NCBI RefSeq assembly: GCF_036507355.1 | Contig: NZ_AP027877.1 | Length of the DNA: 64,000 nucleotides | From: Escherichia coli | Lineage (GTDB): Bacteria; Pseudomonadota; Gammaproteobacteria; Enterobacterales; Enterobacteriaceae | Strand: one strand, 5' to 3' | Shown: positions 1,365 through 47,046 of the stretch, in pieces | How the letters are laid out: each line of letters starts with the position of its first letter | How positions within the stretch are numbered: the first letter of the stretch is position 1 | Notes under the pieces: generated by a model | Seen by the model: only the letters and a program-made list of their open reading frames with translations | Databases searched by the model: none | What the model was told of the DNA's origin: nothing | Program-made: the position numbers and the translations under genes

Positions 1365-2135
1365 TTAAATGACTTTGCGAAGATTTTCAGCAAATGCGGC
1401 GATCTGTTCTTCGCCGTCGCCTTCAATCACGATGCGCTGACGCTCGCGCTGTTTCGGCGCGGCAACCTGTTGTTCTGACCAGGCTGCCTCTGCGTTAAAA
1501 CCGATATCCGCCGCCGACCATACCTGGACTGGCTTTTTCGCCGCGCCGAGAATGGCTTTCATCGAAGGTATTTGTGGGGAGTTGATATCAGTGGAAACAG
1601 CAACAACCGCAGGCAGCGGAATGCTTAAGGTTTCGGTTTCATCTTCCAGTTCGCGCTCAACGGTGAGGGTATCTGCCGTCAGGGAGATAATTTTGCTGAC
1701 GCCGTTAACTGCCGGAATATTGAGGATTTCGCCCACCAGCAGACCAACCTGCTGGGCATAAAGGTCGGAAGAACCATCGCCACAGAGGATCAGATCAAAG
1801 CCTGCTTTCTGGGCGGCTGCAGCCAGTGCGCTCGCCGTTTGTTGCGGCAGTGCCTGCTCGAACTGGTCATCAATCACCACAATCAGTTCATCCGGGCCGC
1901 GCGATAGCACATCTTTACGCCCTTTGGCGTTGGTCAGGGCTTTACCGCCCACACTTAAGGCTGTCACCTGCGCCTCTGCTGCCTGTTGCTTTAGCTGGCA
2001 AGCCGCTTCAATAGCGTTGAGATCGTATTGGCTTATTTTGGCATCGGCTTTGCTGAAGTCTAATGAACCATCAGCATTATTGACCGCAATATCCTGTTCA
2101 TCAGGCACGCACTTATAGCAAGTAATAATCTTCAT
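1365..2135 (-). CDS. fixA: electron transfer flavoprotein beta-subunit homolog FixA
   Basis: ORF track gives 277 aa; the conserved protein starts at the internal [14 protein letters not shown] (ATG at 2135), giving 256 aa. Confidence 0.85.
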
Positions 2136-4122
<1,987 letters not shown>

Positions 4123-14892: not shown

Positions 14893-14940
14893 CCTCCAGA
14901 GAATATTCACTCACTTTATTTGCATATTAATTCACAATGA
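14893..14940 (-). promoter_or_regulatory. carAB P2 promoter region with overlapping ARG boxes (ArgR operator)
   Basis: Reverse strand reads TGAATTAATATGCAAATAAAGTGAGTGAATATTCTCTGGAGGG just upstream of the carA UUG start; two TGAAT...ATTCA-like ARG-box halves. Confidence 0.55.
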
Positions 14941-15341
14941 TGACGTAAATCAATGCAAATCTGCTTACCGACGAATTTCTGGCAAACGGCGGCATTCTGG
15001 AGATATGGGCGCTAAAAGTCAACTTAATGGCAGGATTTTTATATTATTTTGTGGCTCATGCATGTTTTACAGGCATTAAGCGACAAAAAGATCATCTAAC
15101 CTGTTCTGGAAAACGCTTGCGCAGCAAGAAGATTGCATGAAGTAAAAACGAGTAGAAAAAAGTGGACCAAATGGTCAAAATTTACATTAAAACAACAAAA
15201 ATAGAAGACAAAACATGTGATTTTTAGCGTTTGCATAAAATTTAAAAACATAACACAAAAAATAAAAGGGCTAAAAATTAAAGCCCTTTATATTCAATAA
15301 ATTAAATGCGTTACTTTTGCATCACTATAAACACTTTGTGG

Positions 15342-16329: not shown

Positions 16330-17244
16330 TTACGGCACCAGAGCCAGCACCTCAGCCACCCACTGTTGGAAGCCTTTTACATTCAGATCCAATGCCACCT
16401 GTACATTGGCTGGTTTGCCCAGGCAACCGTCGATATCAACCACCGTCGTGCCTGAGGTAAATTCGCCTTGAGTTTCTACCGCGACAAAACACGGCTTGAG
16501 GGTGAATAAGTCCGGGCGCACCAGCCAGGCGATGGCGCAGAGATCGTGCATTCGCAGACCGCTTTGCATACTGCCGCTACGGTAGTGGCTAAACAGGGCG
16601 TGGAGCATTTTTCCGGTGCGATTCAACTCCGGCAAAGTAGCGAGATAGTCAGGGGTTAATATTGCCTGATTGGTGACATCCAGACCGCACATGACGATTT
16701 CGATGCCGCTACGGAAGACACAGGCTGCCGCTTCTGGATCGGCAGCGATATTAAACTCGGCGTTTGGCGTGCAGTTGCCGCGACCGGCAGAGCCGCCCAT
16801 GATCACCAGACGACGAATATACGGTTTACATTCCGGGCATTGTGAAAGTAACAGCGCAATATTGGTTAACGGGCCGATGGCCACCAGGGTAACGGGCTCT
16901 GGTGCACGCATCAGGGCATCCCGAATCGCCAGAAACGCCGGTATCCCGAGCGGCTTTCGGTTGTGCTCAACAAAGTCGTAGCCAGCCATTCCCGATTCGC
17001 CGTGCACAGATGCCGCATCACGCGGTGCGCGTACCAGCGGCACAGCGGCCCCCTGGGCGAGCGGAATCTCCGCATTCCAGAAATGCAGCAGTTGCAGGGC
17101 ATTGCGGGTAGTTTTCTCAACCGAGACATTACCCGCGACGGTGGTCATCAGTTGCAGGTCGAGTTCGGGGGCAAAAATCGCGGCGGCAATGGCGACGGCA
17201 TCGTCAATGCCGGGGTCAGTATCGAGGAAGATAGGTAAACGCAT
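16330..17244 (-). CDS. rihC: non-specific ribonucleoside hydrolase
   Basis: 304-aa ORF with the N-terminal DTDPGIDD nucleoside-hydrolase motif. Confidence 0.9.
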
Positions 17245-29926: not shown

Positions 29927-31093
29927 TCAAACTGATGGACGCAAACGAACGCGTAACCAGCTGTATCCAATTACCGCCGAAGAGATAGAACCGACCAGGA
30001 TACCGAGTTTCGCCCAGTTAATCAGTTCTGGATCTACGCTACCAAAGGCCAGGCTGGCAATAAAGATAGACATAGTAAAACCGATACCGCACAGGATCCC
30101 CACCGCCATAATTTGCTGATAAGTCGTTCCCTCAGGCAGATGCGCCAGTTTCAAACGCAGCGCCAACCAGCAGAACAGACTAATCCCCAGCGGTTTGCCA
30201 ATCAGCAAGCCAGCGATGATCCCCAATGGCAGAATGGAGGTCAAGCCATCCAGCGTGACGCCTTGCAGTGAAACGCCAGCATTAGCAAATGCAAACAGCG
30301 GTAAAATCAGATACGCCACCCACGGGTGCAATACATGCTCCAGTCGCTTCGCTGGAGAACGCCCATGCTTCTCTTTCAAAGGAATAAAGAAGCCGACAAT
30401 TACCCCCGCCAGGGTTGCGTGAACCCCCGATTTCAACACCGCAGTCCACAACACCACGCCAACAAGAATATAGACGCCCGTGCGGCGTACACCACACAGA
30501 TTCAATACCGCGAGTACCGCAATTGCTACAGCCGCGACGCCAAGAGAGGCCATCGATAAGTCATTAGTGTAGAACAATGCGATGATAATGATGGCCCCAA
30601 GATCGTCGATAATAGCCAGAGCCATCAAAAAGATCTTCAGTGCTAACGGAACACGACTTCCCAACAGCGCCAGCACACCAAGTGCAAAGGCAATGTCAGT
30701 AGCCGCCGGGATCGCCCACCCTTCGCGGGTAATCGGATCGGCATAGTTAAAGGCCAGATAGAGTAATGCCGGAACAATCATCCCACCAATAGCGGCGATA
30801 ACCGGAAATGCGGCCTGGCGTAAGCTGGCTAGCGATCCTTGCATCAGTTCACGTTTAACTTCCAGACCGACTAACAGGAAAAATACCGCCATCAGCGCGT
30901 CATTTATCCATAACAGCATGTTTTTGTTGATTTCGAGTGAACCAACCCGGAGCTGAACCGGCGTCTCCAGAAAGTCGTGATACCATCCACTGGTTGCGCC
31001 GCTGTTGGCCATCATCATCGCCAGGATAGCGGCAATGATAAGAATAATGCCTCCCGAGGCATCACTGCTAAAGAATCGATGCAGATGTTTCAC
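29927..31093 (-). CDS. nhaA: Na+/H+ antiporter NhaA
   Basis: 388-aa polytopic membrane protein. Confidence 0.95.
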
Positions 31094-31575
31094 TTTTTAT
31101 TTCTCTTTCAGGTGAATAGATCGTTTTTACTATTTTACTCCGCACAAATCATCGTTAAAATCAGATTATAGTGTAGGAATAACTCGTTTTTTACGAGCAA
31201 TTAAAGGATTTGCGCCATCAGCGGTGAGATGAGTTTTTGACGGCTGTAAGCGCTAACGGGTGACCCTAAGCCCTGATAATCATAGCTTAAGGTCAGGATT
31301 TCTGAGGGATTAATTAGGAAAAGTAATAATTAATTTCTTGTCAGTCGGCGTTATTTGTTAGGACAATATTTCAAAAATAATCCAGCTTGTCGTCAATAAT
31401 TGCGATAAATAGATAAATTAAAGTTAAATAATTAAATCATTAAAAAATTACGCCACAAAAATGCGAGGCGTCTTCAGGATTAGAATCGATAAAACAGAAT
31501 GGGTTAAAGAGAGCGATATAATAGCGGCGGGTGCTTGAGGCTATCTGTCTCAGGCATTAGCTGAACGGCAGATAG

Positions 31576-31630
31576 AGAAAAGCCCCGAGTGATATTTTAC
31601 TATCAACCCGAGGCCCCCTATATGCTGAAC
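31576..31630 (-). ncRNA. sokC: SokC antisense RNA of the hokC/mokC type I toxin-antitoxin locus (position inferred)
   Basis: Placed by the known hok/sok architecture, antisense to the mokC start region; boundaries not demonstrated from sequence. Confidence 0.4.
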
Positions 31631-31831
31631 ACATGTAGAGTGCCTCTTACTGACCGTAAGGTCAAGGAGAAGAGAGCAATGAAGCAGCATAAGGCGATGA
31701 TTGTCGCCCTGATCGTCATCTGTATCACCGCCGTAGTGGCGGCGCTGGTAACGAGAAAAGACCTCTGTGAGGTTCACATCCGAACTGGCCAGACGGAGGT
31801 TGCTGTTTTCACGGCTTACGAATCCGAGTAA
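31622..31831 (+). CDS. mokC: MokC, translational-coupling reading frame overlapping hokC
   Basis: ATG at 31622 (MLNTCRVPLTDRKVKEKRAMKQHK...), same frame and stop as hokC. Confidence 0.7.
   Translation: MLNTCRVPLTDRKVKEKRAMKQHKAMIVALIVICITAVVAALVTRKDLCEVHIRTGQTEVAVFTAYESE
31679..31831 (+). CDS. hokC: Hok-family small membrane toxin
   Basis: 50-aa ORF MKQHKAMIVALIVICITAVVAALVTRKDLCEVHIRTGQTEVAVFTAYESE. Confidence 0.85.
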   Translation: MKQHKAMIVALIVICITAVVAALVTRKDLCEVHIRTGQTEVAVFTAYESE

Positions 31832-31934
31832 GAGCAACGGCGGGGAGTGATCCCCGCCACTTTTCAGGTGCTCGCATATCTTCAACGCACCCTAATTTTA
31901 CCCAAGCCTGCCCACGGGCAGGCTTTTGGGGAGG

Positions 31935-33065
31935 TTAGCGGGTCAGGTCGTCAAAAAACTTCTTCACACCATCAAAGAAGCTCTTTGAGCGCGGGCTGTT
32001 GTGCTCACCGGTTGGGCCACCGAAGCTTTCTTGCAGCTCTTGCAGCAACTGTTTCTGCTTCTCGTTCAGGCCTACCGGTGTTTCGACGACAACGCGGCAC
32101 AGCAAATCACCCTGTGCGCCACCGCGGACAGACTTGACGCCTTTACCGCGCATACGGAAAAGCTTACCGGTCTGGGTTTCGCCAGGCACTTTCAGTTTGA
32201 CGCGACCATCAAGGGTCGGTACTTCGATTTCGCCACCCAGCGCCGCCATAGCGAAGTTGATCGGGACTTCGCAATAGAGGTTGTTGCCTTCACGCTCGAA
32301 AATCGGGTGCTGTTTAACCTGAACCTGAACGTACAGATCGCCTGCCGGTGCGCCATGCTCGCCCGCTTCACCTTCGCCCGCAAGACGGATGCGGTCTCCA
32401 GTGTCCACCCCTGCCGGGATTTTAACGGACAGCGTTTTGCTGCGCTCAACACGACCATGACCATGACATTTGTTGCACGGATCTTTGATCAGCGTACCGC
32501 GGCCCTGACAGTGTGGACAGGTCTGCTGTACAGCGAAGAATCCCTGGCGCATCTGCACCTGACCAGAACCATGACAGGTCGGACAGGTCTGCGGCTGTGT
32601 ACCTGGTTTTGCACCGCTACCGTGGCAAACGTCACACTCTTCCAGAGTCGGAATGCGGATCTCTTTGGTCACGCCACGTACAGCTTCTTCGAGGGTGAGC
32701 TCCATGTTATAGCGTAAATCAGCACCGCGCGCCGCACGTTGACGACCACGTCCGCCGCCAAAAATATCGCCGAAAACGTCACCAAAAATATCGCTGAAGT
32801 CTGCGCCGCCGCCAAAACCGCCGCCGCCCATGCCACCTTGCTCAAACGCAGCATGACCATACTGATCGTATGCCGCACGTTTTTGCGAGTCGGTCAGAAC
32901 TTCATAAGCTTCCTTGATCTCTTTAAATTTCGCCTCGGCCTCTTTGTCACCCTGGTTACGGTCCGGGTGGTATTTCATGGCCAGGCGTTTGTAGGCCTTT
33001 TTGATTTCACGCTCTTCCGCTGTTTTGGAAACGCCTAAAATCTCGTAATAATCTTGCTTAGCCAT
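31935..33065 (-). CDS. dnaJ: chaperone DnaJ (Hsp40)
   Basis: 376 aa from ATG at 33065 ([12 protein letters not shown]...), J-domain, G/F region, four CxxCxGxG zinc motifs. Confidence 0.97.
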
Positions 33066-33153
33066 CTTTTTTAAATTGCCCCTAGATGAATGCACGGGCG
33101 GAGAGGAAATTCCCCTTCGCCCGTGTCAGTATAATTACCCGTTTATAGGGCGA

Positions 33154-40773: not shown

Positions 40774-41550
40774 ATGCTGATTCTTATTTCACCTGCGAAA
40801 ACGCTTGATTACCAAAGCCCGTTGACCACCACGCGATATACACTGCCGGAGCTGTTAGACAATTCCCAGCAGTTGATCCATGAAGCGCGGAAACTGACGC
40901 CTCCGCAGATTAGCACGCTGATGCGCATCAGCGACAAACTGGCGGGTATCAACGCCGCTCGCTTTCATGACTGGCAGCCAGATTTCACGCCGGAGAATGC
41001 CCGCCAGGCTATTTTGGCGTTTAAAGGTGATGTCTACACCGGCTTGCAGGCCGAAACTTTCAGCGAAGACGATTTCGATTTTGCCCAACAGCATTTGCGA
41101 ATGCTTTCCGGCTTGTATGGCGTACTGCGCCCGCTCGATTTAATGCAGCCTTATCGTCTGGAAATGGGGATCCGTCTTGAGAATGCCCGAGGGAAAGATC
41201 TGTATCAATTCTGGGGAGATATCATCACCAACAAGCTGAACGAGGCGCTCGCAGCACAAGGCGATAATGTGGTGATTAATCTGGCGTCAGATGAGTATTT
41301 TAAATCGGTGAAGCCGAAGAAATTGAATGCCGAGATTATCAAGCCGGTGTTCCTCGATGAGAAGAACGGCAAATTTAAGATAATCAGCTTCTACGCTAAG
41401 AAAGCACGCGGTCTGATGAGTCGTTTCATTATTGAAAATCGGCTGACCAAACCAGAGCAACTGACTGGTTTTAATAGCGAAGGTTACTTCTTTGATGAAG
41501 CTTCCTCCAGCAATGGCGAACTGGTGTTTAAACGCTACGAGCAGCGTTAA
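40774..41550 (+). CDS. yaaA: peroxide stress resistance protein (UPF0246 family)
   Basis: 258-aa ORF. Confidence 0.9.
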
Positions 41551-41563
41551 GTTTGCAGTCAAT

Positions 41564-41669
41564 GCCGGATGCGGCGTGAACGCCTTATCCGGCCTACAAA
41601 AGCATGCAGATTCAATATATTGCAGAATTCACGTAGGCCTGATAAGACGCGCCAGCGTCGCATCAGGCG
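41564..41669. repeat. REP/BIME palindromic units
   Basis: gccggatgcggcgtgaacgccttatccggcctac ... gtaggcctgataagacgcgccagcgtcgcatcaggc. Confidence 0.7.
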
Positions 41670-41702
41670 CTGAATGCCGGATTGTTACCCGGCATTTGTC
41701 AT

Positions 41703-41999
41703 TTAGCGGTGATGTTTGCCTGGACCATGACCGCCGTGATGATCATGAGGAGCTTTCTTATGGTGGCGCGGCGGTGGCGGCGGTCCGTGTGGGTGCCAGC
41801 GATTGCCTCGCCATTCATAATGTTGTTTCCACCAGCCGTGGTCGCGCCAGTGACCTCCATCCCAGTAATAGCCACGATTATCACGATCGCCTATCTGTAA
41901 TTTTACTGACGGGACTAACGTAATTTCCGCAGCCTGTGCTGCCATGGGAGCGACCAGAACCAGGGAAAGTGCGAGTACGATAGATTGCATCTTTTTCAC
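41703..41999 (-). CDS. yaaX: small secreted His/Pro/Trp-rich protein of unknown function
   Basis: 98-aa ORF with signal peptide and a low-complexity [28 protein letters not shown] tail. Confidence 0.8.
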
Positions 42000-42212
42000 A
42001 GGTTACTCCTTTTATCATTGCCCGTTATGGGTCGATATCCGGAGATTACGCGATGAGAACGACGGTTGTTATTCTCCGCAATCCTAATCTCTAAGTTACC
42101 GCATTTATTGAGAATTTCTCCTTTTTCCCTGTCGTTTTTCTCCATAATTTCTTCATAAAAAAGCCGGGCTGCATAAAAGCAAACCCGGCCTGATTGAGAT
42201 AATGAATAGATT

Positions 42213-43499
42213 TTACTGATGATTCATCATCAATTTACGCAACGCAGCAAAATCGGCGGGCAGATTATGTGAAAGCAAGGGTAAATCAGCACGTTCTGCC
42301 AGCTCTTTTGGCAGATCCAACGTTTCACCGAGAATCGCTTCCACGCTCTCTTTAAATTTCGCCGGATGCGCGGTGCCGAGGAACAAGCCATATTCGCCTG
42401 GATTCAACTGGTCACGCAGCGCACGATACGCTACGGCAGCGTGCGGCTCCGAGGTGTAGCCCAGTTCTTTTAACTCACGCATTGTCTGTTGCGTGGTTTC
42501 ATCATCCACGGCTGCATAACCCAGCTCTTTCAGTTGCCAGATTTTGCGGCGGAACAACTCTTCCACACGCGGCCAGTTGTTCGGCTGACTCACGTCCATC
42601 GCGTTGGATAACGTCGCCTGAGTCGCTTTGGGTGACCACTGACCGTCGTGCAGGAAACGTGGCACGGTATCGTTCACGTTGGTCGCAGCAATAAAACGTT
42701 TCACCGGCAGACCGAGTGACTTCGCCAGCAGACCCGCCGTCAAATCGCCGAAGTTTCCGCTTGGCACCGAGACAACCAGCTGGTTGCGCGCTTCCTGCGG
42801 CAGCTGCGCAACTGCTTCAAAGTAGTAGCAAATCTGCGCCAGCAAACGGCTGATGTTAATCGAGTTAGCCGAGTTTAACCCCAGCGCCACTTTCAGTTCT
42901 TCATCATCAAACGCCTGCTTCACCAGCGCCTGACAGGCATCGAAATCGCCGTCGATGGCAACAGTTTCGATATTGCCGCCCAACGTACAGAACAGTTTTT
43001 CTTGCAGTGGACTGATTTTGCCTCGTGGATAGAGGATAACCACTTTCACATTCGGCAAACCGTAGAAAGCATGAGCCACTGCCGCTCCGGTATCACCGGA
43101 GGTCGCGGTCAGAATGGTCACTGGCTTATCGCCCGCAATATGGGTCAGCATTTGTGCCATAAAGCGACCGCCGAAATCTTTAAATGCCAGCGTTGGCCCG
43201 TGGAACAATTCCAGACAACCGACATCGCTTTCAACATTGGCGACCGGAGCCGGGAAGGCAAACGCCGCGCGCACGCGCTCTTCCAGGATTTCCTGCGGGA
43301 TTTCATCACCAATAAACGCCGAGAGGATCTTCGCACTGCGGGTGACAAAATCCAGCTTCAGCATCTCATCAATTTCAGTCAGGCTGAATTCCGGCAGGTC
43401 ATGCGGAAAAAACAGCCCCTGATTTTTGCCCAACCCCTGGGTTACGGCTTGCGCAAAGCTGACCTGCTCGTTGTGATCTTTCAGATTGTAGAGTTTCAT
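42213..43499 (-). CDS. thrC: threonine synthase
   Basis: 428-aa ORF. Confidence 0.97.
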   Translation of the reverse strand: MKLYNLKDHNEQVSFAQAVTQGLGKNQGLFFPHDLPEFSLTEIDEMLKLDFVTRSAKILSAFIGDEIPQEILEERVRAAFAFPAPVANVESDVGCLELFHGPTLAFKDFGGRFMAQMLTHIAGDKPVTILTATSGDTGAAVAHAFYGLPNVKVVILYPRGKISPLQEKLFCTLGGNIETVAIDGDFDACQALVKQAFDDEELKVALGLNSANSINISRLLAQICYYFEAVAQLPQEARNQLVVSVPSGNFGDLTAGLLAKSLGLPVKRFIAATNVNDTVPRFLHDGQWSPKATQATLSNAMDVSQPNNWPRVEELFRRKIWQLKELGYAAVDDETTQQTMRELKELGYTSEPHAAVAYRALRDQLNPGEYGLFLGTAHPAKFKESVEAILGETLDLPKELAERADLPLLSHNLPADFAALRKLMMNHQ

Positions 43500-46920: not shown

Positions 46921-46960
46921 CGAAAAAAAAAGCCCGCACTGTCAGGTGCGGGCTTTTTTC
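46921..46960 (-). terminator. thr operon attenuator (leader terminator)
   Basis: GC-rich hairpin agcccgcac-tgtca-ggtgcgggct followed by a T8 run on the coding strand, between thrL and thrA. Confidence 0.85.
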
Positions 46961-46977
46961 TGTGTTTCCTGTACGCG

Positions 46978-47046
<69 letters not shown>

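Follow-up and report, generated by a model that had tools for sequence, protein, structure and literature searches.

The window, meaning the whole stretch of 64,000 nucleotides of Escherichia coli DNA analysed here, corresponds to the E. coli thrL–carB region in an orientation reversed relative to K-12 numbering. The genes surrounding the locus of interest are arranged in the order nhaR (- strand), nhaA (29927-31093, - strand), a hok locus (+ strand), dnaJ (- strand) and dnaK (- strand), and the family identity of the locus is supported by this arrangement, as it is the nhaR-nhaA-hokC-dnaJ-dnaK order of E. coli. The toxin gene hokC (31679-31831, + strand; stop codon 31829-31831) encodes a protein of 50 aa and is preceded by the Shine-Dalgarno sequence AAGGAG (31664-31669, + strand). 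Its product matches Pfam family HOK_GEF (PF01848) with an E-value of 1.8e-24 and 85.5 bits (cut-off 22), covering the full 42-position profile, and is identical to HokC of K-12; the coding DNA is identical in the alignment also. A second reading frame, mokC (31622-31831, + strand; 69 aa; HOK_GEF E = 4.6e-24), is in frame with hokC and has equivalent coordinates in the K-12 annotation. A mok frame that starts 5' of hok, overlaps it and possesses its own Shine-Dalgarno sequence is present, and translational coupling of the two is predicted. The Rfam model for sok (RF01794) matches at 31529-31681 over model positions 1-157 of 157, with 122.4 bits (gathering score 59). With these Pfam and Rfam values and a z-score of -6.8 for the fold of the whole mRNA, the locus stands above chance, and its identification in the original prediction as a hokC/mokC/sokC type I toxin-antitoxin locus was borne out. 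The extent first proposed for it, 31560-31934, holds insofar as the locus is found there, but its start lies upstream of 31560, at ~31516-31529. The convergent neighbour dnaJ (31935-33065, - strand; stop codon 31935-31937) was assigned from its ORF and from the annotation of near-identical genomes. Its stop codon is separated from that of hokC by a gap of 103 bp (31832-31934), in agreement with the approximately 100 bp anticipated. Taken together with what follows, the locus between nhaA and dnaJ is very probably the chromosomal type I toxin-antitoxin system hokC (gef)/mokC/sokC, in the form without an IS that is the majority form in E. coli.

The naming of these genes differs among records. 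RefSeq/PGAP gives the 50-aa HokC product the name MokC (WP_000809168.1, 'type I toxin-antitoxin system toxin MokC'), a quirk that could mislead automated comparisons, and leaves sokC unannotated in the records examined. The K-12 record NC_000913.3 keeps the three genes apart, with hokC at 16751-16903, mokC at 16751-16960 and sokC at 16952-17010.

Several other features of the window were recorded. A fimbrial remnant adjoins nhaR (26031-28924), consisting of a C-terminal usher fragment (26031-27098; Pfam Usher/PapC_C), an IS1 transposase ORF (27326-27829) and an ORF of 319 aa with no Pfam match (27965-28924). In K-12 this place is taken by IS1A together with a truncated fimbrial gene. Strain AMSCJX02, whose genome is the nearest to the window at the hok locus, carries an usher pseudogene without this IS1. 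An intact ORF of 473 aa with no Pfam match (24169-25590) corresponds by position to the type III effector gene espX1, which is a frameshifted pseudogene in AMSCJX02. The latter genome also has an IS621 between yaaA and yaaX (30451-32393 of the retrieved locus) which is absent from the window at 41550-42213, so that the strain of the window is related to, but different from, AMSCJX02. Further matches to Rfam models that exceeded the gathering score were tpke11 (between dnaK and dnaJ), ES003, ES036, two copies of the REP-derived naRNA4 and the thr leader (in the order listed, 33066-33143, 14935-14987, 41598-41640, 55720-55797, 60115-60193 and 46923-47042), all of which are expected for this region of E. 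coli.

A full-length hokC mRNA of ~400 nt is predicted to span 31529-31928 (+ strand). Its start is that of the Rfam model, with a 5' end homologous to R1 GGCGCUUGAGG, and its 3' end is placed at the putative terminator formed by the second of two hairpins in the hokC-dnaJ gap. A putative -10 box of the hokC/mokC promoter, TATAAT (31516-31521, + strand), aligns with TATGAT located 5' of the R1-type hok mRNA start and ends 7 nt 5' of the presumed +1. The elements that govern translation of R1 hok mRNA have counterparts along this transcript, all on the + strand. The translational activator tac, GGGUGCUUGAGG, forms the extreme 5' end (31529-31540). It is followed by ucb, an anti-Shine-Dalgarno box (AGCCCCG, 31580-31587) that is identical to the R1-type sequence, by the mokC Shine-Dalgarno GAGG (31610-31613), conserved with that of R1 mok, for which this motif has been described (PMC9841398), and by dcb (GCCUC, 31642-31646), which overlaps the sokC promoter region. 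Beyond the coding sequence lies the fold-back inhibitory element fbi, CUUCAACGCACCC (31880-31892), directly preceded by GCAUAU (31874-31879).

The gene for the antisense RNA, sokC, was placed at 31572-31630 on the - strand by transferring the NC_000913.3 coordinates (16952-17010) through a gap-free alignment. A 55-nt core of SokC (31576-31630) is predicted to fold with a single-stranded 5' tail of 12 nt, a long hairpin and a U tail (z = -4.5). The putative sokC promoter region (31637-31665, - strand) is homologous in position to the Sok promoter of R1 and identical to that of K-12; it comprises a -35 box TTGACC (reverse complement of 31660-31665) and a weak -10 box CACTCT (reverse complement of 31637-31642). 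The sokC gene itself differs from that of K-12 by two SNPs (31601 and 31616). The consensus promoter scan called neither the sokC promoter nor the hokC promoter, the -35 of which is weak, and the terminator scan did not call the second hairpin, which is followed by only four T residues. These three assignments are therefore based on homology with R1 and identity with K-12 rather than on consensus matches.

Both hairpins that had been predicted in the gap between hokC and dnaJ were found, each with a fold more stable than those of shuffled controls, from which the z-scores derive. Hairpin 1, GGCGGGGAGTGATCCCCGCC (31839-31858, + strand), has an uninterrupted stem of 8 bp (MFE of -18.7 kcal/mol for 31832-31870, z = -3.3) and is homologous to the GC hairpin followed by UUUUCAGG of R1, so that the processed (truncated) hokC mRNA would end in this stem-loop. 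The same hairpin is a target for IS186, here unoccupied. Hairpin 2, GCCTGCCCACGGGCAGGC (31906-31923, + strand, then TTTT to 31927; MFE of -22.5 kcal/mol, z = -4.1), is located 7 bp from the dnaJ stop codon. An A run and a T run border it, and in strains that bear IS186 it is still found beside dnaJ; with its U run it likely terminates hokC and, on the other strand, the convergent dnaKJ operon. These properties of hairpin 2 would also suit the view that both hairpins are mere terminators of the convergent hokC and dnaKJ units, with no specific role in hok regulation. Such a view is very improbable, given that hairpin 1 is homologous by position as well as by sequence to the 3' stem-loop of the truncated hok mRNA of R1 (Tr-hok). 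This R1 counterpart shields Tr-hok from 3' exonucleases, and mutations destabilizing it abolish toxicity (PMC9841398). Moreover, between the two hairpins there is a 12-bp stretch complementary to the mRNA 5' end, which shows a compensatory change relative to R1 (GGGUGC/GCACCC in tac/fbi here, GGCGC/GCGCC in R1). A shared terminator at hairpin 2 can be accommodated by the main explanation, that of a complete hokC/mokC/sokC locus.

For R1 hok mRNA, a switch between a closed and an open form has been described (PMC9841398). In the full-length mRNA, tac at the 5' end and fbi at the 3' end close a stem while ucb holds the mok Shine-Dalgarno; the truncated mRNA is translatable and binds Sok; and in the nascent chain a metastable 5' hairpin conceals tac. 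The predicted folds of hokC mRNA reproduce this published switch. The full-length transcript (31529-31928) gave an MFE of -165.5 kcal/mol with its 5' and 3' ends paired, tac (31529-31540) forming twelve pairs with fbi (31880-31892). In the same MFE fold, GCCCC of ucb (31582-31586) pairs with the mokC Shine-Dalgarno (31610-31614), and the mokC AUG is paired within 31620-31625, which is matched with the GCAUAU 5' of fbi (31874-31879). Once truncated (31529 to 31859-31866), the mRNA is predicted to pair tac with ucb (31580-31586) and the mokC Shine-Dalgarno with dcb (31642-31646). The first 30 nt of the nascent chain are predicted to form a hairpin of -17.0 kcal/mol that buries tac (nt 2-13 with nt 19-30), the R1-type control giving -13.7 kcal/mol. 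The R1 comparator, an R1-type hok/sok locus from an IncFII plasmid, was folded by the same method and closes likewise by tac-fbi pairing, its duplex having an energy of -17.0 kcal/mol compared with -17.9 kcal/mol for hokC.

The comparison with R1 hok/sok that had been called for thus found tac, fbi and ucb all present, together with every other hok element. The order is shared throughout: tac, the 5' stem, ucb, the Sok target, the mok Shine-Dalgarno and dcb with the Sok promoter, then the hok Shine-Dalgarno, hok, the GC hairpin with its following sequence and fbi. There are also differences between the two systems. R1 hok/mok/sok (parB), the paradigm of type I toxin-antitoxin systems, is plasmid-borne whereas the hokC locus is chromosomal; the 5' stem is 18 nt shorter here; mokC, unlike mok of R1, reads in the frame of hokC and ends at the same stop codon; and Tyr47 (TACG) of hokC is an RNA-editing site.

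The corresponding locus of K-12, gef/sof (hokC/sokC; b4412, b0018, b4413), has the same HokC, MokC and nhaA and dnaJ neighbours. The record of MG1655 contains a transposase gene between hokC and dnaJ annotated as 'IS4-like IS421 family', the same element being annotated as IS186A in NC_000913.3. This annotation and the alignment support the statement that an IS186 copy occupies this gap in K-12 MG1655, while the alignment also substantiates the predicted absence of the element from the window, where the site is empty. IS186 of K-12 is inserted inside hairpin 1, 22 bp past the hokC stop codon, with a target duplication of GGAGTGATCC (~31844-31853 in window coordinates), and thereby separates fbi and the terminator from the body of the mRNA, a separation that does not exist in the window. 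The insertion would remove the protective stem-loop and shift fbi ~1.3 kb away, both of which are in place here. In K-12 gef/sof, IS186 is likewise reported, with reference to Pedersen & Gerdes (1999), to disrupt fbi and processing, and hokA, hokC and hokE of K-12 have been regarded as inactivated by insertion elements. Apart from the insertion, the window is identical to K-12 over 31617-31863, including the sokC promoter region, and differs from it at 31497, 31543, 31601, 31616, 31864, 31895 and 31905.

The integrity of the allele was assessed with an alignment of ten sequences, comprising the window, eight E. coli alleles free of an IS (identity of 93.6-99.8% across a 901-bp query including the locus) and the K-12 flanks with IS186 removed. 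The window is unchanged in tac, fbi, ucb, the mokC and hokC Shine-Dalgarno sequences, dcb, hairpin 1, the sokC promoter region and the coding sequence. Point mutations in the fold-back or processing elements or in the sokC promoter, which had been named as evidence that would count against a functional locus, were sought in this alignment and none was identified. The SNPs specific to the lineage of the window are at 31543, 31601, 31864, 31895 and 31905, none of them in a key element. Owing to these differences from most alleles, with those at 31497 and 31616 in addition when compared with K-12, it might be supposed that the locus is intact in appearance only and that a strain-specific regulatory point mutation silently disables it. 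This is extremely unlikely: the positions lie outside tac, fbi, ucb, both Shine-Dalgarno sequences, dcb, the sokC promoter and the coding sequence, the A at 31543 gives an A-U pair where other alleles have G-U, the T at 31601 gives a local hairpin one more A-U pair, and the T at 31864 results in an R1-like UUUU; 31895 and 31905 fall in the stretch separating fbi from hairpin 2. The allele is furthermore identical to that of strain AMSCJX02 over 31480-31940 and is found unchanged in two further genomes over a 201-bp junction. Disablement by strain-specific SNPs was rejected following the ten-sequence alignment.

The T at 31864 produces CCACUUUUCAGG after hairpin 1 (UUUU), as in R1, and is a minority variant that was also seen in AMSCJX02, MB56, CUVET20-416 and S163-2; the other eight alleles of the alignment, K-12 included, possess an A (UUUA). 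The longer U run might raise termination at hairpin 1. A different kind of variation was observed in strain GN03590, where C-to-T at the equivalent of 31685 turns codon 3 of hokC (CAG, Q3) into TAG and where the RefSeq annotation is of a 'Hok/Gef family protein' that starts further downstream and is shorter. It follows that some lineages carry a point-inactivated hokC without an IS.

When the junction between hokC and dnaJ was used as a 201-bp query, it was uninterrupted in 3,814 of 5,426 complete E. coli genomes (~70%, a percentage that describes the database and not the species, as RefSeq sampling is biased), the remainder breaking at 31843. According to right-junction queries extending into dnaJ, 681 of the 5,426 genomes carry IS186 at hokC oriented as in K-12, and 924 carry it at that same base but in reverse. 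The site is hence occupied by IS186 in 1,605 genomes (30% of those in this database), so that occupied and empty sites (3,814) together cover 5,419 of the 5,426. The occurrence of two orientations implies at least two independent insertions. Queries of the left junction (the hokC 3' end with an IS186 end) returned 1,270 and 1,380 genomes, exceeding the ~1,611 interrupted ones; these counts were discarded because of this excess and because hokE-IS186 junctions were matched as well. IS-free hokC is the normal, majority form in E. coli, already described in 1999, and the IS186-bearing form of K-12 is the exception.

Hairpin 1 is a recurrent target of IS186 (GGGG-N6-CCCC). The target consensus of this element reportedly put forward by SaiSree et al. 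in 2001 is (G)>=4 N3-6 (C)>=4, the lon promoter hot spot being an example. Like such hot spots, hairpin 1 presents a G run, a spacer and a C run, and in the window it is unoccupied; GGGGAGTGATCCCC at 31842-31855 (GGGG-AGTGAT-CCCC) is the only GGGG-N3-6-CCCC site in the 64 kb. A similar event was noted at hokE of strain LP50-1, where IS186 lies in the homologous hairpin after the stop codon, GCGGGG-AGCAAT-CCCCGC (1851-3190 of the retrieved locus), with a duplication of GGAGCAATCC whose register matches that at hokC. Two hokE genes are annotated in this strain, one on each side of the IS.

How the elements, folds, conservation and frequencies observed here would work together in this strain, in terms of transcription, processing, control by SokC and toxicity, is proposed by homology with plasmid R1 hok/sok, supported by folding. 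A weak promoter would give rise to a stable mRNA of ~365-400 nt, the 5' tac of which pairs with the 3' fbi. With ucb sequestering the mokC Shine-Dalgarno and the mokC AUG paired, neither mokC nor the coupled hokC would be translated from this closed form. Slow trimming of the 3' end to hairpin 1 would then remove fbi, allowing tac to capture ucb and the mokC Shine-Dalgarno to shift to the dcb stem, and the resulting mRNA would be translatable and could bind SokC. Pairing of SokC RNA (31572-31630, - strand) with the mokC start region would lead to decay of the mRNA. HokC, if made, would be an inner-membrane toxin of 50 aa, and editing of the TACG codon by TadA (Tyr47 to Cys) may tune its toxicity. 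TadA is known to recode Tyr to Cys by A-to-I editing in hokC, hokD and hokE, and the TACG motif is present at the Tyr47 codon of the window (31817-31820, + strand), the published editing site. A tRNA-like TadA stem-loop was not predicted around this motif in the fold of a 26-nt fragment (z = +0.8).

An IS-free hokC/sokC locus has been studied previously in strain ECOR24 (Pedersen & Gerdes 1999, Mol Microbiol 32:1090, PMID 10361310). It reportedly occupies the same chromosomal position as that of the window, is likewise free of an IS and possesses tac, fbi and the remaining elements; the window allele has a few SNPs of its own lineage, none of which touches a key element. The transcript reported for ECOR24, of ~330 nt, is of the length expected if hairpin 1 forms the 3' end (31529 to ~31860). 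The ECOR24 locus reportedly showed neither post-segregational killing nor activation by rifampicin, and no other functional test of IS-free hokC is known to have been published. In light of this negative result, R1-like behaviour in vivo is doubtful even where every element is present.

The locus might thus be structurally complete but physiologically inert, a relic that is transcribed and processed but never triggered naturally. This is a possibility to be taken seriously, albeit tentatively. Editing of hokC at the conserved Tyr is low, having been found at ~9% in K-12, and natural nonsense alleles such as the Q3 to TAG change of GN03590 occur, both of which are in keeping with an inert locus. 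Inertness is harder to reconcile with the very strong conservation of the whole mRNA, including its non-coding pairing elements, across divergent E. coli, which argues for purifying selection. The HokC peptide, moreover, is toxic upon expression, and a preprint reports that CRISPRi knock-down of sokC has a strongly deleterious effect in K-12 itself, which is aggravated in minimal medium. This suggests that the IS186-bearing locus of K-12 is still toxic upon sokC knock-down. That the undisturbed locus could be a functional toxin module, as suggested at the outset, may therefore hold or not: the ECOR24 test was negative for plasmid-type killing, and the indirect data from K-12 hint at residual toxicity. 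It could be envisaged that IS-free hokC is conditionally active, for example during nutrient limitation, and that IS186 insertions have been retained for an altered regulation of hok, beyond the target preference of the element. This is a rather unlikely proposal, on which bear the presence of both orientations at hokC, the proportion of genomes affected and the insertion in the homologous hokE hairpin.

The value of this locus as a discovery is small, since descriptions of it, of its regulatory elements and of the form without an IS date from 1999, and every E. coli genome in RefSeq has it annotated. Its meaning lies in how chromosomal hok loci are judged. K-12 is unrepresentative in this respect, the full hokC mRNA with its 3' stem-loop and fbi being present in the majority of the complete E. 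coli genomes, and conclusions drawn from K-12 that chromosomal hok loci are 'inactive' consequently need to be re-tested in IS-free strains.
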